A DNA stretch of 64,000 bases, from assembly GCA_046598345.1 (NCBI GenBank), contig JBKJIT010000003.1:156549-220548 (forward strand), given 5' to 3'. Positions 3,583 through 46,647 of the stretch are shown in pieces (the first letter of the stretch is position 1; every line of letters starts with the position of its first letter). The notes under the pieces are model-generated. The model did no database searches. It saw only the letters and a program-made list of their open reading frames with translations, and had not been told where the DNA came from. A program made the position numbers and the translations under genes. The DNA is from Minisyncoccia bacterium. Lineage in GTDB: Bacteria; Patescibacteriota; Minisyncoccia; Phycocordibacterales; UBA918.

Positions 3583-3942
3583 TTACTTCTTCGGCGCGGC
3601 CGGTGGGACAGGAGCGGGTGCAGGCGCTGGAGCCGGCTTTGCAGCTGCGGGAGCTGCCGGTGCAGGTGCCATCGCTTTGGGTGCATCCTTGGCCGGAGCT
3701 GACTTCTTCGCCTTCTTCGACTTCTTCGCTTTCGCCTTCATGGCCTTCGCTGGCGCTTTTGCGGTCGCGGGTACCGCTGCCGGTGCAGGTGCCACAACTT
3801 TCGCTGGTGCCGCGGCGGCCGAAGGTGCTGCTGCCGGTGCAGGTGCCACAACTTTCGCTGGTGCCGCCGTTTGCGCCATGGCCGAGCTCAACATACTTGC
3901 GGTCGCCAGAGCGGCCGTAAGGTACAACAGGGACTTCTTCAT
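3583..3942 (-). CDS. secreted low-complexity Ala/Pro/Lys-rich protein (signal peptide plus APAKVVAPAPAA repeats and a lysine-rich tail)
   Basis: ATG at 3942 is preceded by AGGAGG; N-terminal MKKSLLYLTAALATASMLSSAMA looks like a signal peptide; the ORF track's longer form starts at an upstream GTG; local GC is clearly higher than the window average. Confidence 0.55.
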   Translation of the reverse strand: MKKSLLYLTAALATASMLSSAMAQTAAPAKVVAPAPAAAPSAAAAPAKVVAPAPAAVPATAKAPAKAMKAKAKKSKKAKKSAPAKDAPKAMAPAPAAPAAAKPAPAPAPAPVPPAAPKK

Positions 3943-4134
3943 CTCAACTACCTCCTTGATTATCACTCACACGGATGTGCGAGTTGATTTCTGATTCTTA
4001 CTGTAAATATTACTTTTGTCAATCTCTTAAAAAAATCTGCATCACGTTCACATTTTTGTAATAAAACCCACTAATAAAAATTCCCTCGCGATGAAACTTG
4101 CGAGGGAATTGATCGACCGTTATGGAAACGATGA

Positions 4135-4554
4135 TCAGGAGATCTGGTACGGACCGGCTTCTGCGGTGAGGCGCTGGGGCTGCCGACTGCCGAGCGGAAC
4201 CGTCATGCCGCCGCCGATTTGCAAACGCCCACTGGTGTAGCTCGTGCTGATGAACTTGGTTTCGTCGACGTTGGTTTGCTTCGTGTGCTGCCAGCGTTCC
4301 GGAACGGTGTTCAGGTAGTCAACATTCGGCGCAATCGCCGCCTTGTTCATCTGCGCGAACGGACCGTCGGGCGCTTTTGGCGTCACGGGGTGACCAGCCT
4401 TGTTGAACGTCAGGTAGATCTGGTCTTGCCCGCTGTTGTATGCCGACATGTGACGATTGAGCTGCTGGTTACAGTCGCCCGCAATGACGGGCGTCGAGAT
4501 TGTTGCCAGTGCTGCTCCAACGACGAGTGCGATGCTGCGGAAACGCGTTCTCAT
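4135..4554 (-). CDS. secreted hypothetical protein (about 139 aa)
   Basis: internal ATG at 4554 is preceded by GGAGTCGGAG; MRTRFRSIALVVGAALATISTPVIAG looks like a signal peptide; the ORF track extends to 4656 without RBS support; GC-rich. Confidence 0.5.
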   Translation of the reverse strand: MRTRFRSIALVVGAALATISTPVIAGDCNQQLNRHMSAYNSGQDQIYLTFNKAGHPVTPKAPDGPFAQMNKAAIAPNVDYLNTVPERWQHTKQTNVDETKFISTSYTSGRLQIGGGMTVPLGSRQPQRLTAEAGPYQIS

Positions 4555-4652: not shown

Positions 4653-6872
4653 TCATTCCATATGGAGATCTTTGCCAAGTGTCAGAATCTTTTCGCGAAG
4701 AAGGGGATACTCCGTAAGTTCGGAGTCAGTCTCTATAAGTAATTGTGCCTCTTTTCTCGCCGCCTCTACCATCTTTATATTTTTAATCGCCTCCATGCCC
4801 AGGTCGGTGAGCCCCCACTGCTTCATGCCATAGAGTTCACCCGAGCCCCGGAGCGCAAGATCGAATTCCGCGAGCTCAAATCCGTTCTTCGCAGTCGTGA
4901 GTGCCTTGAGGCGCTCGAGGGTGCGTCCACTTTTTCCTGTGCTGTCTTTTGAAGTTACCGCAAAGCAGTACGCTTGGTGCTCACTCCGAATCACTCGCCC
5001 GCGAAGCTGGTGGAGTTGCGAGAGGCCAAATCGCTCTGCGCCTTCAATAAGAATATTAGTTGCGTTTGGCACATTGACGCCCACCTCGACAACCGATGTT
5101 GCGACTAGAATGTCGATGTTGTGTTCAAGAAACCGCTTCATCACGTCATCCTTTTCCTTCGGAGTCATTTTACTGTGGAGGATGCCAATGCGTGCAGTCT
5201 TAAACACTTCCTTTTTGAGTCGCAGAGCCTCTGCTTTTACTGACTTGAGCTGTAGCGCATTTTCTTTTAATGGGTCAGGTTCATCAATGCGCGGGCAGAT
5301 TATGTATGCCTGTCTTCCAGCTTTGATCTCGCCCTTCATATGTTCGTACACCTCAGCAATTTTAGTGGGAATCACGACTTTAGTGATGATGGGCTTTCGT
5401 CCCTTGGGCATTTCGTCGAGAAGGGAAATATCGAGGTCCCCATAGACGGTCAAGGCAAGCGTTCGAGGGATAGGAGTCGCCGTCATGGAGAGGAGGTGCG
5501 GCATACGAGTATCTTTCTTCGCGAGCGCACGCCGTTGCGAGGTCCCAAAGCGATGCTGTTCGTCGATAATGACATGCGCCAGGTGTTTGAATGCAACTGA
5601 TTTGTAGATCAGGGCATGTGTGCCGATAAGAATAGGAATTTCTCCATTCTGCACCCACTTAAGGAGCTGTGTCTTTGAGATTGTCGTTGGCTTTGAGGGA
5701 TTCGTCTTTGAAGGGAACTTCATGCAGCCGCTTCCTGTAATGAGTCCAATCTGAATTGGGAGGTGCTTAAAATATTCGATGAATGACTCGAAATGCTGTT
5801 TCGCAAGGATTTCTGTGGGTGCCATGTAGGCAACTTGGAGATTCCCGTATTCGAGAGAACCCACGGACCTCACGGAGGTCCGGCCTCCGTGAGGATTTAA
5901 ACCTTCCGGTGGCCTCGAGGTGGCGACGGCGTACGCGGTTGTGGCAGCGACCGCCGTCTTTCCGCTTCCCACATCTCCTTCGAGAAGTCGTGACATCGGA
6001 TGCTTCCCGGTGAAGTCCTTCAGCATTGCTGAAATGGCCCGCGTCTGTGCGTTCGTGAGCGGGAACGGGAAGCGAGAGGTGAATGCCTTGATGTGCTCTT
6101 CTTCAGTTTTAAATTGGTAGCTCGTCGAGACGGATATTTGGGCGCGCTCCTTTGCTTTTGCGAGCTGGATGCCAAAGACCTCTTCAAAGGCGAACCGCTT
6201 TCGTGCACTCTCTGCATGTTCCGCTTTCTTAGGAGTGTGTATCCAAATGAGCGCTGTACTAAGTACGGGTAGGTTGTATCGTTTGAGCACTTCGCTAGGT
6301 ATTGGGTCAGCGAGCTTCTCAAGGACGCCTGCACTAAAACACTTTTGCACCGTATGAAAAAACCATTTTGAGGTCACGCCCTTGGTTTCTCGGTATACGG
6401 GATAGATAGTCTCGTCTAAGTTTTCGGTGTTTTTGAAAATGGAATCGTGTCGGTCAATGGGAAGGCTTTCTAACTTTTCAATTTCAGGATTCGCGAGGTA
6501 GAGCTTTCCGTCACTCCCTGTCACTTTTCCCGCGAGCTTTACGTACGTGCCATCGGTGAGCATCTTTGCGATGTACGGTTGGTTAAACCACATGATCTTG
6601 ATTCTCGCTGTGCCATCCTCAACCCAGCCTTCTGAAATCGGTACGCGACTCTTCCACGATTTACGAGTGTTGAGCCCGCCAATTTGTCCATAGACCACCG
6701 CATCCTCTCCCTTTGTGAGTGAGCCAACAGATTGAATCGATGAAATATCCTCGTAGCGCTGCGGTACATGGAGGAGTAGATCTTGCACAGTTAAAACGCC
6801 TAAGCGTTTCAGAGCCTTTTGATGGATCTGATCAACTCTGAAATGGGAAGTAAGGAGATCGTGAGGCGACAC
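4653..6872 (-). CDS. recG: ATP-dependent DNA helicase RecG
   Basis: GDVGSGKT Walker A, DEQHRFG motif II, LSMTATPIPRTL, and an N-terminal wedge-like region beginning ...DLL..P.RYED. The track ORF runs to 7127, but that extension has no internal Met and contains the 6923-6945 hairpin; a GTG at 6872 is proposed as the start (uncertain). Confidence 0.85.
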   Translation of the reverse strand: MSPHDLLTSHFRVDQIHQKALKRLGVLTVQDLLLHVPQRYEDISSIQSVGSLTKGEDAVVYGQIGGLNTRKSWKSRVPISEGWVEDGTARIKIMWFNQPYIAKMLTDGTYVKLAGKVTGSDGKLYLANPEIEKLESLPIDRHDSIFKNTENLDETIYPVYRETKGVTSKWFFHTVQKCFSAGVLEKLADPIPSEVLKRYNLPVLSTALIWIHTPKKAEHAESARKRFAFEEVFGIQLAKAKERAQISVSTSYQFKTEEEHIKAFTSRFPFPLTNAQTRAISAMLKDFTGKHPMSRLLEGDVGSGKTAVAATTAYAVATSRPPEGLNPHGGRTSVRSVGSLEYGNLQVAYMAPTEILAKQHFESFIEYFKHLPIQIGLITGSGCMKFPSKTNPSKPTTISKTQLLKWVQNGEIPILIGTHALIYKSVAFKHLAHVIIDEQHRFGTSQRRALAKKDTRMPHLLSMTATPIPRTLALTVYGDLDISLLDEMPKGRKPIITKVVIPTKIAEVYEHMKGEIKAGRQAYIICPRIDEPDPLKENALQLKSVKAEALRLKKEVFKTARIGILHSKMTPKEKDDVMKRFLEHNIDILVATSVVEVGVNVPNATNILIEGAERFGLSQLHQLRGRVIRSEHQAYCFAVTSKDSTGKSGRTLERLKALTTAKNGFELAEFDLALRGSGELYGMKQWGLTDLGMEAIKNIKMVEAARKEAQLLIETDSELTEYPLLREKILTLGKDLHME

Positions 6873-30784: not shown

Positions 30785-30827
30785 ACAAGAACAAGAAAAG
30801 ACTGGCATGAACCAGTCTTTTCTTGTT
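30785..30827 (+). terminator. terminator hairpin aacaagaaaagactgg-catgaa-ccagtcttttcttgtt
   Basis: 16-bp perfect stem immediately after the stop at 30782. Confidence 0.65.
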
Positions 30828-30848
30828 CTTGTTGCGGGGCCCGGAATC
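30826..30848 (-). repeat. isolated copy of the 3' end of tRNA-fMet (TCGATTCCGGGCCCCGCAACAAG in minus sense)
   Basis: cttgttgcggggcccggaatcga at 30826-30848 repeats the sequence at 30994-31016; the real tRNA lies about 150 nt away. Confidence 0.6.
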
Positions 30849-30967
30849 GACATCGAATCACTAGTTCACTTCGTTCATAAGTGTTCGTTAGCTCGGCTCA
30901 CTCATTTGACATTAGGAATAGTCAAATTGAGTTCCGCATGTTCGATTCCTGAGCACAAGAAACGAAA

Positions 30968-31876: not shown

Positions 31877-31950
31877 GTCGGCGTAGCTCAGTTGGTTAGA
31901 GCATCTCACTCATAAAGAGAAGGTCGGAAGTTCAACTCTTCCCGTCGACA
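31877..31950 (+). tRNA. elongator-type tRNA with CAU anticodon (Met, or Ile2 if lysidinylated)
   Basis: acceptor GTCGGCG/CGTCGAC (G1-C72 paired), D-arm GCTC-AGTTGGTTA-GAGC (C11-G24), loop CTCATAA, T-arm GGAAG-TTCAACT-CTTCC, discriminator A. Confidence 0.8.
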
Positions 31951-31954
31951 CTAG

Positions 31955-31992
31955 CACACAAAAAGCTGGATATCCGTCCAGCTTTTTGTGTG
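31955..31992 (+). terminator. terminator hairpin cacacaaaaagctgga-tatccg-tccagctttttgtgtg
   Basis: 16-bp stem immediately after the tRNA. Confidence 0.65.
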
Positions 31993-31997
31993 TCTCT

Positions 31998-32021
31998 GTA
32001 AGTCGACGGGAAGAGTTGAAG
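31998..32021. repeat. inverted copy of the tRNA-Met 3' end (gtcgacgggaagagttgaa is the reverse complement of ttcaactcttcccgtcgac); a direct partial copy caactcttcccgtc lies at about 32117-32130
   Basis: read directly from sequence. Confidence 0.55.
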
Positions 32022-32181
32022 AGAGCGAGTATATCGCACGGAGTGAAACGAGTACGATTCGAGCGACGGGGCAGCGAGTTCTTAATATTTTGAAGTATGA
32101 AAAATATTTAGAACTGGCGCCAACTCTTCCCGTCTCCGGCCTTCATCTAATCCGCATAAGAGCCTGTGTCATAATGGTCAT

Positions 32182-34042: not shown

Positions 34043-34140
34043 GTCTAAATCATAACAAAAACAGACCCTTTAGAGAAAGTCTGTTTTTGAGCCGGGATAC
34101 AGTTATTCATATGGTCACGAGTCACTCAGTAAAATGCTTA

Positions 34141-34302
34141 CATTTGTACTAAGTGCTTTCGACCCCACCTCACGTGCCCCCGGCATCGTTCCGGTTCGCA
34201 TTTAGACACTGACACAAAGCAGTTTGTGTCATAGAACAAAACACCATCATTTCATGATGGTGTTTTGTTCTATCTAACTGCGCGGCGGACGGGACTCGAA
34301 AC
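34141..34302. repeat. family-B repeat segment plus a 19-bp-arm hairpin (34231-34273) plus an isolated, minus-oriented copy of the last 28 nt of tRNA-Asp (34274-34302)
   Basis: TTGTACTAAGTGCTTTCGACCCCACCTCAC and ATCGTTCCGGTTCG match the 1975-2055 repeat; taactgcgcggcggacgggactcgaaac is the reverse complement of GTTTCGAGTCCCGTCCGCCGCGCAGTTA; hairpin gacacaaagcagtttgtgtc (34211-34230) recurs inverted at 35500-35521. Confidence 0.6.
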
Positions 34303-34352
34303 GTATTGATAACTTGTTTAGGTAAATATACTGTCATGACATACTATGTACT

Positions 34353-35009
34353 ATGCCCATACAAAAGATTGTACAATCAGATTTTTTTAAAACATGGAGT
34401 CATGGCATGGCGTACATTTTGGGATTTTTTGCAGCAGACGGAAGTATAACGAAGACAAAAAGAAATACTCATTTTATTTCGTTTACTTCTGCCGATAGAG
34501 AGATTTTATCCGCCATACAAAGATTGATGAAGTCTAATCATAAATTATCCGAACGAAAATCTAAGACCGGTTGTGTCTATCGTTTCCAAATTGGTAGCAA
34601 AGTCATTTTTAATGACCTCATTGCACTTGGTTTTAGTAAACGCAAATCAACTCGTATGCTCATGCCTAATATCCCCAATCAATACATTCCAGATTTCATT
34701 CGGGGTTATTTTGATGGTGATGGAAATGTTTGGATTGGTTATATGAATAAACACAGAGAAAGGCAGACAAAAGTAATCCAAGTCGCATTTACAAGCGGAA
34801 GTAAAAAATTTCTTGAAACGCTTTTATCTCTCTTGCGAGAGAGAGGGATACGAGGTGGCTCACTTTACTCATCAAAGACAAAGAATTTTTCTCGACTTTC
34901 CTTAAGTACTTTAGATGCTTTGAAACTGAAGGGAATCATGTATAATGGGCAACCGAAGCTCTATTTGAAAAGAAAAAAGCTTCGCTTTGATACGTATAAA
35001 TCAATGTAA
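34353..35009 (+). CDS. LAGLIDADG homing endonuclease, double-motif type, free-standing immediately upstream of an intron-containing tRNA
   Basis: AYILGFFAADGSI and FIRGYFDGDGNV, two LAGLIDADG motifs about 100 aa apart; the stop codon lies 2 nt before the tRNA 5' end. Confidence 0.85.
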   Translation: MPIQKIVQSDFFKTWSHGMAYILGFFAADGSITKTKRNTHFISFTSADREILSAIQRLMKSNHKLSERKSKTGCVYRFQIGSKVIFNDLIALGFSKRKSTRMLMPNIPNQYIPDFIRGYFDGDGNVWIGYMNKHRERQTKVIQVAFTSGSKKFLETLLSLLRERGIRGGSLYSSKTKNFSRLSLSTLDALKLKGIMYNGQPKLYLKRKKLRFDTYKSM

Positions 35010-35011
35010 CT

Positions 35012-35307
35012 GCGGTGGTAGCTCAACTGGTTAGAGCACCCGCCTGTAGACGTGCAGCTTTCTTTCCGAAAGGGGGATTGAAACTTTCCGGGATAACGGT
35101 GAAGGCTAAGTTTGCCATTTGGCGAATATGCGAATACCGTGGGAACCTTATACACAAAAACACATAGTATAAGGGCGCCGTAGAGACTAGATACCGGGAT
35201 ATCTAAAAGTTTGAAAAAACTCATGATAAAGATATAGTCCACGCCACTATGAAAATAGTGGAAGCAGTGCACGCGGGAGGTTGCGGGTTCGAGTCCCGTC
35301 CGCCGCG
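35012..35307 (+). tRNA. tRNA-Asp(GUC) interrupted by a 222-nt group I intron between anticodon positions 35 and 36
   Basis: exons 35012..35047 and 35270..35307 join to GCGGTGGTAGCTCAACTGGTTAGAGCACCCGCCTGTCACGCGGGAGGTTGCGGGTTCGAGTCCCGTCCGCCGCG plus discriminator G. This matches E. coli tRNA-Asp closely (loop CTGTCAC, G73, C38, G10); 5' exon ends in U, intron ends in G. Confidence 0.8.
35048..35269 (+). mobile_element. group I intron (small, ORF-less) in tRNA-Asp
   Basis: internal guide GTGCAG at intron nt 5-10: CAG pairs the exon CUG(U.G) to form P1 with a U.G wobble at the splice site, and GTG pairs the 3' exon CAC (P10). An R-like element tagagactag lies at 35181-35190 and an exact S element aagatatagtcc at 35229-35240; a P9-like hairpin ccactat-gaaa-atagtgg precedes the terminal G at 35269. 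Confidence 0.75.
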
Positions 35308-35342
35308 CAGTTAGTAAAAGTCGGCCTTGTGCCGATTTTTTC

Positions 35343-35452
35343 GTGCGCGTCAGGGACTCGAAGAGGTTGCCAGCTATTTGTGACCGAAGGAAACAAATAG
35401 CGACAACCTGTACTGAACATGTAATGTTCGAGTCCCGTCCGCCGCGCAGTTA
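35343..35452 (+). repeat. family-A element L1: an inverted tRNA-Gln-like 3' piece, then GTTGCCAG plus hairpin plus core CGACAACCTGTACTGAACATGTAATGTTCGAGTCCC, ending in an exact copy of the tRNA-Asp 3' end (35426-35452)
   Basis: 35366-35436 aligns with 46480-46540 across a roughly 70-nt homologous span; the last 27 nt equal tRNA-Asp positions 53-73 plus CAGTTA. Confidence 0.6.
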
Positions 35453-35457
35453 AATAA

Positions 35458-35493
35458 ACCTAAAAACCACAGTCTAAGGACTGTGGTTTTTAG
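35458..35493 (+). terminator. terminator hairpin cctaaaaaccacagtc-ctta-gactgtggtttttagg
   Basis: perfect 16-bp stem; followed by hairpin gaacacaaactgctttgtgttc (35500-35521). Confidence 0.6.
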
Positions 35494-35654
35494 GTTTAGA
35501 ACACAAACTGCTTTGTGTTCGTATCTAACTGTGAGCTAGAGTCATGTTTTTGCTACACAAAATGCAAAATAGACGAGGCCGGGTCGAGAGTGCTTAAGAG
35601 CAAAGCGAATTAGCAACTCCTGACCAGTACCCAGCGAAAGGGATTTGAAAAGAC

Positions 35655-35730
35655 TGGAGCCGTCTCCGAGGATCGAACTCGGGACCTTTGCGTTACGAAT
35701 GCAATGCTCTACCAACTGAGCTAAGACGGC
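35655..35730 (-). tRNA. tRNA-Thr(CGU) with encoded CCA
   Basis: reverse complement GCCGTCTTAGCTCAGTTGGTAGAGCATTGCATTCGTAACGCAAAGGTCCCGAGTTCGATCCTCGGAGACGGCTCCA; loop TTCGTAA; A31xC39 mismatch; a family-B repeat piece lies downstream at about 35570-35625. Confidence 0.8.
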
Positions 35731-35757
35731 GGTGTCGCTATAGTATACTTAAGGTAT

Positions 35758-35958
35758 ATGAAAGACAAACAATATTACGCAATCACTTCCACAGTTTTTT
35801 TAGTAATCGCAGCGGCACATTTCACTCGAATTCTACTTAATCTCGGTGCTTCAATTGGTGGATACGAAATCCCACTCTACGCAAGCGGTGTTGCAGTAAT
35901 TCTTGCGGGGTATCTTGCAACTCGTGGTTTTATGACCCTTTGCAAAAATAAGGCCTAA
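35758..35958 (+). CDS. small hydrophobic protein (66 aa), doubtful
   Basis: two predicted TM helices; no other support. Confidence 0.3.
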   Translation: MKDKQYYAITSTVFLVIAAAHFTRILLNLGASIGGYEIPLYASGVAVILAGYLATRGFMTLCKNKA

Positions 35959-36003
35959 CATAGTAGAGTATATGTATAGTTTGGACATGCTATACTAATT
36001 TAT

Positions 36004-36615
36004 GTGATTAAAGAAAATCTCGAATTACAGTATCTCGTACAGCAGAAATCTGTAAGTCAAATTGCGGGAGAAGAGAAATGTTCACAAAACAAAATCACAT
36101 ATTGGCTCGAAAAACACAAAATTCCAAAACGGACAATTTCCGATGCTCTTTACATTAAATATAATCCACAGGGAGATCCGTTCCTATTTAAAAAACCAAA
36201 AAGTTCTGAAGAATGGTTTATATATGGTCTTGGACTAGGTCTGTTCTGGGGTGAGGGGAATAAGATGAATAAAAATTCTGTGCGACTTGGAAATACTGAC
36301 GGAGATTTGTTAAATTTATTTCTATACTTTTTACAGTCTGTTTATCAAATTAACGAACAGAAGTTACGCTTTGGATTACAGCTCTTTACTGATATTCCAA
36401 AAGAAAAGGCACTCGAATATTGGTCTCAGAAATTAAAAGTTTCAAAGAGTAAATTTCAAAAAATTGTTGTAACTAAGTCAGTACGCAAAGGTATCTACAA
36501 AAAGAAAAGCGAGTATGGGGTTCTGACCATCTATTTTTCGAACACCAAACTTCGTGATAGTATCATGGCTGCAATTACCGAATTGCGTGGGAAACTTTAC
36601 AATAAGCCATCTTAG
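36004..36615 (+). CDS. putative LAGLIDADG-type homing endonuclease (single motif with N-terminal HTH-like region), free-standing; stop codon lies inside tRNA-Thr positions 8-10
   Basis: WFIYGLGLGLFWGEGN fits the LAGLIDADG pattern (acidic residue at motif position 8); N-terminal LQYLVQQKSVSQIAGE...KITYWL is HTH-like; TAG at 36613-36615 overlaps gccatctTAGctc. Confidence 0.55.
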   Translation: MIKENLELQYLVQQKSVSQIAGEEKCSQNKITYWLEKHKIPKRTISDALYIKYNPQGDPFLFKKPKSSEEWFIYGLGLGLFWGEGNKMNKNSVRLGNTDGDLLNLFLYFLQSVYQINEQKLRFGLQLFTDIPKEKALEYWSQKLKVSKSKFQKIVVTKSVRKGIYKKKSEYGVLTIYFSNTKLRDSIMAAITELRGKLYNKPS

Positions 36616-36882
36616 CTCAGTCGGTAGAGCGCATCCATGGTAAGTCGCATGACTTCTTGCCCTTCAGACTGGAAACTGTCTGATGAAACCCGAATTACGG
36701 TTAAAAACTCAGGTGGAGTTAAGACCGTGGCCCAATTACCCCAATGGGCCCGAACGACTGACAAGGGGCGCTTCATTCAAGTTGAATATGCGTAAGATAC
36801 AGTCTAGTCCCCATATATCACTTTTTATAAATTGGGGTGTAAGCGAAGGATGAGGTCCACGGTTCAATCCCGTGAGATGGCT
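36606..36882 (+). tRNA. tRNA-Thr(GGU) interrupted by an intron of about 204 nt between positions 36 and 37
   Basis: exons 36606..36641 and 36846..36882 join to GCCATCTTAGCTCAGTCGGTAGAGCGCATCCATGGTAAGGATGAGGTCCACGGTTCAATCCCGTGAGATGGCT, close to E. coli tRNA-Thr(GGU); 5' exon ends in U, intron ends in G. Confidence 0.75.
36642..36845 (+). mobile_element. probable group I intron in tRNA-Thr(GGU)
   Basis: CTTGCC at intron nt 15-20 can pair the 3' exon AAG (P10) and the 5' exon GGU (P1, U.G at the splice site); an S-like taagatacagtctagtcc element lies near the 3' end; the core is less canonical than in the Asp intron. Confidence 0.55.
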
Positions 36883-36884
36883 CA

Positions 36885-36916
36885 GAAAAAAATCCCTGAA
36901 AGGGGATTTTTTGAGA
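36885..36916 (+). terminator. terminator aaaaaaatccctgaaaggggatttttt after tRNA-Thr
   Basis: hairpin plus T run. Confidence 0.65.
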
Positions 36917-36924
36917 CATCTAGG

Positions 36925-37060
36925 TAAGCAAACTACTTTGCCTGCATCCGGGATTGAAAACCAGAGTCATGTCGCTTGCGACAGACGAGGTCGGGTAGGA
37001 GGTTCTTGGCGAGCCTAGAAACCGGACACCAATCCCGTGAGGTGGCTCAAAAAAATTAAA
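36925..37060 (+). other. tRNA-like remnant ending in a degenerate copy of the tRNA-Thr 3' end (ccaatcccgtgaggtggctca), followed by the strong palindrome at 37058-37097
   Basis: the last 21 nt resemble TTCAATCCCGTGAGATGGCTCA of tRNA-Thr(GGU); no complete cloverleaf can be drawn. Confidence 0.3.
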
Positions 37061-37097
37061 TATCCTATAGTGTCCGGCCGGACACTATAGGATATTT
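37058..37097. terminator. perfect 20-bp-arm palindrome aaatatcctatagtgtccgg / ccggacactataggatattt
   Basis: read directly from sequence. Confidence 0.6.
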
Positions 37098-37288
37098 ATG
37101 TAGGAGAATGGCATTGTGTAGAAGCTGCGAAGTATCAGAAAAGTAGTAAAAGAAGTAAGTGTTGTGTGATAGTCTAATATATCCCGTGTTTTCACAGGAT
37201 GGTTTTTGCTCTTTAAGATGATAGGAAAGAGTGGGGCCTTGCAAGAAGCTTCATGTGCTTCATGAATGCAGCCCAGCCTCGCCACAAT

Positions 37289-46329: not shown

Positions 46330-46549
46330 CATTGCCAGTTCGTCTAATGGTGGCCAGAAATTAATGAGCGCTGCGATTATAATTTCTGAGTCCGTCTGAT
46401 TTTCTTCCTCACAGAAGAAAATCAGACGTTTGGGAGGTCCTGAGTATTGGGGCTGAAATGATATGGGGTATTATTTCAGGACGTTGCCAGATATTTATAA
46501 AAAATATCGACAACGTGTACTGATCATGTAATGATCGAGTCCCTTACCA
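46330..46549 (+). repeat. split pseudo-copy of tRNA-Gln: the first 21 nt (46330-46351) and a 3' piece inside family-A element L2 (46480-46549, core CGACAACGTGTACTGATCATGTAATGATCGAGTCCC)
   Basis: cattgccagttcgtctaatggt occurs at 46329 and 46560; 46480-46540 aligns with 35366-35436. Confidence 0.55.
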
Positions 46550-46562
46550 GAACAAAAAATAT

Positions 46563-46633
46563 TGCCAGTTCGTCTAATGGTAGGACACATGCCTCTGGAG
46601 CATGTTATTGGGGTTCGAGTCCCTGACTGGCAG
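46563..46633 (+). tRNA. tRNA-Gln(CUG)
   Basis: acceptor TGCCAGT/ACTGGCA (U1-A72), D-arm GTCT-AATGGTA-GGAC, anticodon stem CATGC/GCATG, loop CTCTGGA, T-arm TGGGG-TTCGAGT-CCCTG (two G.U pairs), discriminator G. Confidence 0.7.
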
Positions 46634-46647
46634 CTAATAGAAAATCG

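Follow-up and report, generated by a model that had tools for sequence, protein, structure and literature searches.

Group I introns are known from the tRNA genes of Patescibacteria, where they interrupt tRNA-Asp(GUC) between positions 35 and 36 and tRNA-Thr(GGU) between positions 36 and 37 (Nakagawa et al. 2026, mSystems; PMC13011429). In that study endonuclease genes were sought only inside the introns; most tRNA introns lacked them, horizontal transfer was limited and poor mobility was concluded. We analysed a stretch of 64,000 nucleotides (nt) from a Minisyncoccia bacterium (contig JBKJIT010000003.1; the whole stretch is referred to below as the window), in which both of these tRNA genes are split by introns that carry no open reading frame (ORF), and in which each tRNA gene is directly preceded by a free-standing gene of the LAGLIDADG homing-endonuclease type: ORF1 at tRNA-Asp(GUC) and, less certainly assigned, ORF2 at tRNA-Thr(GGU). 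The introns themselves are already known. What is apparently unreported is that, in the related loci compared here, two dedicated LAGLIDADG-type families are docked on tRNA genes across Patescibacteria, one at the 5′ end of tRNA-Asp(GUC) and one at that of tRNA-Thr(GGU), with introns enriched at such loci without being obligatory. Endonuclease genes that stand upstream or free are mentioned neither in PMC13011429 nor in the tFind preprint (Williams 2020, 10.1101/2020.01.27.920355) nor in the rRNA-insertion study of the candidate phyla radiation (CPR), and we found no description in the literature of free-standing LAGLIDADG genes adjoining CPR tRNA genes.

Comparable arrangements have been described in phages. 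Collaborative, or trans, homing pairs a free-standing endonuclease with a group I intron lacking an ORF, as for F-CphI with psbA in cyanophage S-PM2 and mobE with nrdB in T-even phages (PMC3984707, PMC2988022), and the free-standing GIY-YIG endonuclease SegB of phage T4 lies between tRNA genes and promotes inheritance of the tRNA region (PMC2988022). The original prediction for this DNA, made from its sequence, had regarded endonuclease genes outside and upstream of intron-bearing tRNAs as a non-standard arrangement; both of these phage systems precede it. As in collaborative homing, a free-standing endonuclease gene adjoins a gene split by an ORF-less intron, in the window and in 52 (ORF2) and 12 (ORF1) related loci, and linked inheritance and intron-mediated protection would be expected. 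The phage cases, however, concern protein-coding genes and HNH or EndoVII-like enzymes, whereas the genes here are chromosomal tRNA genes and the enzymes of LAGLIDADG type; moreover, the ORF here overlaps the 5′ end of its target gene, and most family members sit beside intron-less genes. The phage target is known by experiment to be the intron insertion site, whereas for the present genes that site is no more than a candidate. SegB resembles the present genes in that a homing endonuclease gene stands free within a cluster of tRNA genes, but it is of the GIY-YIG rather than the LAGLIDADG type, belongs to a phage rather than a bacterial chromosome and is associated with no intron.

The introns match those of PMC13011429 in phylum, host tRNAs and insertion sites, and the Thr type is invisible to the Rfam group I intron model RF00028 in both data sets; unlike in that account, a dedicated LAGLIDADG-type gene abuts each tRNA, an arrangement that is the rule in about 145 related loci. 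Cyanobacterial tRNA introns also encode endonucleases (PD-(D/E)XK in tRNA-fMet, LAGLIDADG PF03161 in tRNA-Arg(CCU)). There too a single tRNA gene, whose anticodon loop holds a group I intron, has an enzyme of its own, but the ORF lies inside the intron, whereas here it lies outside and upstream, often without any intron. Finally, WhiA is a LAGLIDADG-derived transcription factor with two degenerate domains that lack the catalytic residues and a C-terminal helix-turn-helix (HTH). ORF2 differs in having one domain, an invariant acidic residue and an N-terminal HTH.

Two split tRNA genes and the ORFs that precede them

Standard tRNA and Rfam scans of the window returned six tRNAs and one group I intron match (35052–35261). 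Allowing introns, ARAGORN added two genes, tRNA-Asp(GUC) and tRNA-Thr(GGU), both of which are missed by plain ARAGORN. The former was called at 35012–35308, with a 222-nt insert between cctgt and cacgc that corresponds to 35048–35269 (+ strand), interrupts the anticodon loop at position 35/36 and contains no ORF. Its 5′ exon (35012–35047, +; tRNA positions 1–35) is 100% identical to an intron-less allele in a related locus, L002 (such loci, described below, are given L numbers), and its 3′ exon (35270–35308, +), likewise placed by ARAGORN, aligns contiguously with intron-less alleles. Because the intron-less tRNA-Asp genes of L002, L003 and L007 join exactly at 35047/35270, aligning across it without a gap, the junction is confirmed. 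RF00028 matched 35052–35261 with 51.4 bits (gathering score 50) over the whole model, and the core elements, an R-like AGACUA and the S element AAGAUAUAGUC, align to it. Read from the sequence, the internal guide GTGCAG (35052–57) can form P1 by pairing its GCAG with CUGU of the first exon, including a U.G pair, and P10 by pairing its GUG with CAC of the second; the terminal nucleotide is G. ARAGORN, RF00028 and the intron-less alleles thus agree on the 222-nt split at 35/36, and the guide, R-like and S elements and terminal G are as the original prediction described them.

Homologues of the Asp intron in L087 and L083 scored 82.2 and 52.9 bits, respectively, against RF00028. The window copy is 87% identical to the intron listed in PMC13011429 for GCA_023898525.1, the 5′ exon of which is identical, and 76% identical (aligned positions) to the tRNA-Asp intron of GCA_001029755.1, for which precise self-splicing in vitro has been demonstrated (PMC13011429). 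The Asp intron is accordingly presumed from its type to self-splice. On the minus strand of L139 (49–317), a related metagenomic locus, there is a further group I intron-like match to RF00028 of 49.9 bits, slightly below the gathering score.

For tRNA-Thr(GGU), ARAGORN in intron mode found the gene at 36606–36883 but misplaced the intron boundary. The ARAGORN call and an alignment of 57 homologues together place the 5′ exon at 36606–36641 (+; positions 1–36) and the 3′ exon at 36846–36883 (+), separated by a 204-nt insert without an ORF (36642–36845, +; position 36/37) that ends in G. Rfam gave no match for this insert, even at E ≤ 10, so that of the two introns expected to match RF00028 only that of tRNA-Asp did so; Thr-type introns have been called “divergent”, and RF00028 is reported to miss them (PMC13011429). 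We therefore drew the structure by eye. In P1, GGU of the exon pairs with GCC, with a U.G at the 5′ splice site; AAGGA and UUCUU offer a possible P10; the P2 hairpin has a GAAA loop; and P3–P9 could be drawn, including a J8/7 of UAAGAUA and a P7 pairing of GACUG with CAGUC.

The hand-drawn structure, with P7 treated as a pseudoknot, was evaluated for covariation on a MAFFT alignment of 57 homologous pre-tRNAs from related loci, and pairing partners slid by 1–3 columns served as the control. In these 57 sequences 90.7% of cells were paired, compared with 35–43% in the slid controls, and the covariation score was 0.416 against ~0.09. Double changes were found in 45 of 71 pairs (16 helices, a count that includes the four tRNA stems). 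P1 (GGU/GCC with the U.G), P4 and P7 are invariant, and P2, P3, P5, P6, P8 and P9 covary; the poorly scoring helices were the P1 extension and the tip of P8, both in length-variable regions that MAFFT misaligns. By its covariation-supported P1–P9 fold, the predicted insert of about 204 nt in tRNA-Thr is a genuine divergent group I intron after position 36.

ORF1 (34353–35009, +; 218 amino acids) ends 2 nt before the start of tRNA-Asp. It matched Pfam LAGLIDADG_3 (PF14528) in two stretches (E 1.1e-17), LAGLIDADG_1 (PF00961; E 1.6e-5) and the phage family PHROG 4645, “endonuclease” (E 2e-32). It has more than 1300 homologues, the named ones being LAGLIDADG or intein-type endonucleases of Patescibacteria, and the motif acids D29 (68/68) and D123 (69/69) are invariant among homologues with a residue at the position. 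By these matches ORF1 is a free-standing, double-motif protein of the LAGLIDADG homing-endonuclease family, with DNA cleavage predicted.

ORF2 (36004–36615, +; 203 amino acids) runs into its tRNA, its TAG stop codon forming positions 8–10 of tRNA-Thr(GGU). Both gene ends are thus where the original prediction had put them. Its expectation that both proteins belong to LAGLIDADG profiles was borne out for ORF1 and not for ORF2, which had no Pfam or NCBIfam match; Foldseek and a PDB sequence search were also empty. Within the ORF2 motif GLGLFWGEG, Gly-Glu-Gly is invariant in 78/78 homologues, and hhalign aligned the motif region with the first motif of the ORF1 family, weakly (E 0.029, probability 1.7%). 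The first 50 residues form an HTH resembling the N-terminal DNA-binding modules of phage homing endonucleases. ORF2 is a probable LAGLIDADG-type enzyme with a single such domain and would therefore presumably act as a homodimer.

As predicted, neither intron contains an ORF with a homing-endonuclease signature. In the 64-kb window tRNA-Asp(GUC), tRNA-Thr(GGU) and each of the two endonuclease genes were found once only, and no other tRNA was split. Database homologues of ORF2 carry a trace of the same geometry: many (e.g. P0139, P0150, P0158 and P0180) end in “...ANVAQSVERIHGKSQ”, and several in “...AQSVERIHGKS”. The former ending is a translation of the tRNA-Thr 5′ exon and the first part of the intron, the reading frame having continued into an unannotated split tRNA; the latter is likewise translated tRNA. 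By this reading of the sequences, such C-termini are an annotation artefact that marks split-tRNA loci.

One tRNA species for each endonuclease family

Related loci were gathered for both families, 80 with ORF2 relatives from species-representative genomes and 80 with ORF1 relatives from metagenomes. The named genome records, which are those of the ORF2 loci, are nearly all from Patescibacteria; the metagenome contigs with ORF1 carry no taxonomy. The ORF2 homologue lay directly 5′ of tRNA-Thr(GGU) in 77/77 scorable loci, and the ORF1 homologue directly 5′ of tRNA-Asp(GUC) in 68/68. The endonuclease stop codon falls within the tRNA gene in 52/77 ORF2 and 49/68 ORF1 loci, with a median overlap of 10 nt. 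The upstream neighbour is variable for ORF2 and mostly tRNA-Met for ORF1. By these counts the endonuclease–tRNA arrangement is conserved and not accidental.

The docked tRNA carries an intron in 52/77 Thr loci and 12/68 Asp loci. Since docking holds with or without the intron (25/77 ORF2 and 56/68 ORF1 loci are intron-less), the endonuclease genes are, as judged from the loci compared, tied to a particular tRNA gene and not to the intron. Terminator-like hairpins occur at the window locus only after each tRNA, and there is no room for a terminator between the ORFs and the tRNAs; from this geometry alone (a 2-nt gap or an overlap), co-transcription of ORF and tRNA is plausible.

Several combinations of endonuclease and intron were found. 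For tRNA-Thr(GGU), 52 loci have an intact endonuclease and the intron, 25 the endonuclease without the intron, 3 the intron without the endonuclease, 1 (L148) a truncated endonuclease remnant with the intron, and 9 neither; the endonuclease-less tRNA-Thr(GGU) genes came from loci ascertained through the other endonuclease. In L148 the remnant is a 5′-truncated ORF2 pseudogene (3742–4135; profile positions 120–197) with internal stops, located between tRNA-Asp and an intron-bearing tRNA-Thr(GGU), and it looks like a decaying endonuclease left beside its intron. For tRNA-Asp three combinations were observed, the endonuclease with or without the intron and the absence of both; the loci that had been collected through the other endonuclease gave 12 tRNA-Asp genes with neither element and 1 with both, and no ORF1 remnants were found upstream of the 12 endonuclease-less genes. 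L002, L003 and L007 have ORF2 and the Thr intron in common with the window and lack ORF1 and the Asp intron; their tRNA-Asp genes are the intron-less alleles that the original prediction proposed should be looked for in related genomes. Across the related loci, intron and endonuclease were associated for Thr (Fisher p = 0.027) and not significantly for Asp, the samples being neither independent nor uniformly ascertained.

Internal stops are otherwise few, occurring in only 4 copies of one endonuclease family and 1 of the other. The target gene is dedicated and conserved, the distribution is patchy, the catalytic residues are kept and a copy has occasionally decayed, a pattern that suggests free-standing homing endonucleases.

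Orphan tRNA 3′ parts and tRNA-matched elements

Fragments of the split tRNAs recur around the window locus. An orphan tRNA-Asp 3′ part, running from the T-loop to the 3′ end plus 5 nt, lies inverted just upstream of ORF1 (34274–34300, −) as an exact 27-nt inverted repeat with 35288–35314. The two copies flank ORF1 and most of the split tRNA-Asp, and if the stretch between them were inverted, the tRNA gene would be intact whichever way round it lay. There is also an exact 27-nt direct copy of the T-loop-to-end segment at 35426–35452, and the 3′ part of tRNA-Thr is copied at 37030–37055 as a 92% direct repeat. On a larger scale, 34196–34300 and 35427–35534 form an imperfect inverted repeat (78%), both arms of which match sequence downstream of tRNA-Asp in L007; 34141–34300 matches, reversed, the region downstream of the intron-less tRNA-Asp there. 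Taken as sequence patterns, the inverted repeats suggest that this genome underwent a local inversion or duplication, and they do not look like a general property of the endonuclease unit.

Among the related loci, orphan tRNA 3′ parts follow tRNA-Asp, Thr, Met, Trp and Tyr in 22/160, sometimes in tandem. Their interpretation as homing scars was largely rejected: they also occur at endonuclease-less tRNAs, and they are part of conserved structured elements. We also considered integrase attachment-site remnants and transposon ends; no integrase, transposase, TnpB or reverse transcriptase was found among window ORFs of at least 300 amino acids, and there was no Rfam family match.

The structured elements are of two types, for neither of which we found an Rfam family or a description in the literature as tRNA-flanking elements. 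Many tRNA genes are followed on the same strand, at a distance of 24–80 nt and beyond a terminator-like hairpin, by the B-type, which is ~105–140 nt long. A covariance model, R1, detected seven copies in the window, each downstream on the same strand of a tRNA or tRNA 3′ fragment. One follows the orphan tRNA-Asp 3′ end on the minus strand (34103–34206, −; 52 bits, E 9e-15) and takes part in the imperfect inverted repeat described above, a second is at 35524–35649 (+; 62.1 bits, E 5e-18) and a third, at 36949–37054 (+; 84.5 bits), ends in the orphan tRNA-Thr 3′ part and has a 5′ arm, CGGGATTGAA, antisense to the tRNA-Thr T-loop and T-stem; the others are at 1935–2044, 2059–2169 and 30826–30950 (all −) and at 32011–32148 (+). 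Further copies were detected in fifteen related loci, 17 copies having E ≤ 0.001 (e.g. L098, L002, L015, L084, L121, L003, L139, L094, L156 and L012). The consensus of 24 copies is 94% paired, against 30–43% in slid controls, with many double changes, figures flattered by an alignment fitted to the model. In about a dozen copies the 5′ arm is antisense (9–19 nt exact) to the preceding tRNA (Asp, Met or Thr) over its T-loop, T-stem and acceptor 3′ strand, and the end is a direct copy of that same tRNA segment.

The A-type element consists of a 5′ antisense arm, a variable hairpin, GTACTGAAnnTGTAA and an orphan tRNA 3′ part. The copy at 35344–35452 (+), recognised by the direct repeat and by a motif that recurs after tRNA-Asp, Met and Thr in related loci, begins with an antisense arm matched to the T-loop and T-stem of tRNA-Asp, followed by a hairpin, the motif GTACTGAACATGTAATG and the exact 27-nt orphan tRNA-Asp 3′ part. 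Other copies lie at 46440–46560 in the window and in L083 (4114–4454), L139 (2636–2928) and L007 (3603–3790), in tandem in L083 and L139. Beside the orphan, a short hairpin shows covariation with the T-loop sequence of the respective tRNA. If transcription read through from the real tRNA, the arm of an element is predicted to pair perfectly with that tRNA's 3′ half. Elements of both types might represent a novel class of mobile or regulatory RNA that is tRNA-targeted.

Four regions illustrate the variety of these elements. At 46337–46634 a tRNA-Gln 5′ fragment (~19 nt, 46337–46357) is followed by a hairpin, the A-type copy, a degenerate tRNA-Gln 3′ part and then an intact tRNA-Gln(CUG) (46563–46634); the region looks, from its order of parts, like a disrupted older tRNA-Gln copy, a pseudogene, that holds an A-type element. 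At 31877–32150, read-through of tRNA-Met and its B-type element gives a transcript in which a 19-nt antisense arm is predicted to form a perfect pairing with the 3′ half of the tRNA and thereby unfold it (minimum free energy −122.7 kcal/mol, z = −9.6); as DNA, the same region is a long palindrome centred on the terminator hairpin. L139 carries five head-to-tail B-type copies with a 136-nt period (5336–6004), and L087 carries two tandem 203-nt units behind tRNA-Met (2324–2738), in both of which the tRNA 3′ part is present as an inverted and as a direct copy. Elsewhere at the locus, the uninterrupted tRNA-Thr(CGU) (35655–35730, −; ARAGORN and Rfam tRNA) is the divergently oriented neighbour of the ORF2 unit, and a 66-amino-acid hydrophobic ORF without a Pfam or NCBIfam family match (35758–35958) lies between it and ORF2.

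Explanations for the association of endonuclease, tRNA and intron

We think it reasonably likely that the locus comprises two independent selfish units, in which free-standing homing endonucleases are accompanied by hitch-hiking or collaborating introns, as a cellular variant of the “collaborative homing” of phages. In such a cycle the endonuclease would cut its cognate tRNA locus in genomes without the endonuclease, and the break would be repaired from the endonuclease-bearing allele (intron-less homing). The intron would be dragged along by co-conversion (trans or collaborative homing), as expected because it lies only ~40 nt from the end of the endonuclease gene; repair from an endonuclease-bearing donor is expected to co-convert a marker at that distance. 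The intron may also interrupt the recognition site of the nuclease, which would protect the host's own tRNA gene, and the tRNA would remain functional through self-splicing of the intron. DNA cleavage and its site, co-conversion, immunity and co-transcription are what we infer for these loci. The remnant beside the intron in L148 is what a homing cycle of this kind predicts.

A number of observations weigh against collaborative homing. Intron-less tRNAs stand beside 25/77 ORF2 and 56/68 ORF1 homologues in which the catalytic residues are kept; because so many endonuclease-bearing loci are intron-less, self-immunity does not, on this distribution, depend on the intron, which cannot be the sole protection, and the target need not coincide with the place of intron insertion. 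Conversely, intron-bearing tRNA-Thr genes without an endonuclease make up 3 of 13, in addition to the L148 remnant. Intron state is only partly clustered on the endonuclease similarity tree: nearest neighbours agreed in intron state at 0.74 for Thr, against 0.56 expected (p = 0.001), with the states intermixed otherwise, and not significantly for Asp, in samples that are not independent. The exon context of tRNA-Thr, UCC-AU-GGU/AAGGA, tracks the intron and not the endonuclease, and could reflect splicing constraints rather than co-conversion. When the nuclease target was sought through the tRNA consensus across the four endonuclease/intron classes, no endonuclease-linked difference was found. 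A promoter scan, with fewer sites than in shuffles, was uninformative and says nothing on co-transcription.

Much of the same evidence would suit unrelated residents, with the endonucleases homing into the spacer at the tRNA 5′ boundary and the introns being old, essentially immobile, vertically inherited passengers; their co-occurrence would reflect nothing more than that indispensable tRNA genes are where either kind of element survives best. We find this doubtful. Most endonuclease copies do sit beside intron-less tRNAs, intron-bearing loci without an endonuclease exist, the intron correlates with its own exon context and not with the endonuclease, and the published view is one of limited mobility of these introns (PMC13011429). 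Yet the Asp intron is present or absent among relatives with identical exon sequence, and co-conversion of a marker 40 nt away is to be expected from established knowledge of homing. Introns are also present in 68% (Thr) and 18% (Asp) of the loci that bear an endonuclease, against 3 of 95 complete Patescibacteria genomes (~3%) for each (PMC13011429), a comparison that favours collaborative homing less than it appears to, in that its base rate was taken from another data set, the loci lack phylogenetic independence and ascertainment was mixed.

If the proteins had instead been domesticated, as maturases or as WhiA-like DNA-binding regulators of the tRNA locus, the HTH of ORF2 and the strictly conserved position beside one tRNA species would make sense, and LAGLIDADG maturases are known from organelles. 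We nevertheless consider domestication very unlikely. The 56/68 ORF1 and 25/77 ORF2 homologues without a nearby intron have nothing to assist, and a maturase was rejected on this ground as the general explanation, so that the trans-acting maturase role raised by the original prediction does not account for them. A WhiA-like role is unlikely because the metal-binding acidic residues, absent from WhiA, are invariant here. A patchy distribution among close relatives and a decayed copy fit a selfish element better than a host function, and homologous Asp introns self-splice without protein (PMC13011429). The other suggestion of the original prediction was a composite cassette, in which the endonuclease gene and the whole intron-bearing tRNA move together; on arrival the cassette would replace or disrupt the tRNA gene already there, and orphan tRNA 3′ fragments would then be its scars. 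This rests on the exact 27-nt inverted copy of the tRNA-Asp 3′ part just upstream of ORF1, the direct copy downstream, and flanks that on both sides match the region downstream of the intron-less tRNA-Asp in L007. The inverted orphan, however, is peculiar to this genome: it was seen upstream of ORF1 at no other locus among the 68 compared, where tRNA-Met usually precedes. Orphan 3′ copies also follow endonuclease-less tRNA-Met, Trp and Tyr and belong to the A-type and B-type elements, and the window can be explained just as well by repeats between which a local inversion or duplication took place. A cassette thus seems to us improbable.

A more specific possibility, which we put forward tentatively, is that each endonuclease–tRNA–intron unit is a two-part gene drive in a cellular genome. 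The nuclease would cut the intron-less form of an essential tRNA gene at the anticodon stem-loop, a natural pseudo-palindrome that would suit a homodimeric enzyme such as ORF2, and the site would be broken by the ORF-less intron, which would serve as the antidote. If this were true, the loci would be living intermediates in the birth of mobile introns, spreading among Patescibacteria.

The loci also have practical consequences. Split-tRNA loci break assemblies and hide two essential tRNAs from standard annotation, and protein databases list ORFs that read into the tRNA genes at these sites. The predicted ORF1 and ORF2 enzymes would be compact natural nucleases, presumably with long, tRNA-gene-specific recognition sites. 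The published inference of poor mobility, from the only systematic study of these introns, rested on introns without endonucleases, and the finding of dedicated endonuclease genes just outside the introns changes that inference; it suggests that the introns are more mobile than the literature assumes. Collaborative homing at these tRNA genes would give the few phage cases a very widespread equivalent in cellular organisms, with all stages present: endonuclease alone, intron alone, both together, and a decaying endonuclease.

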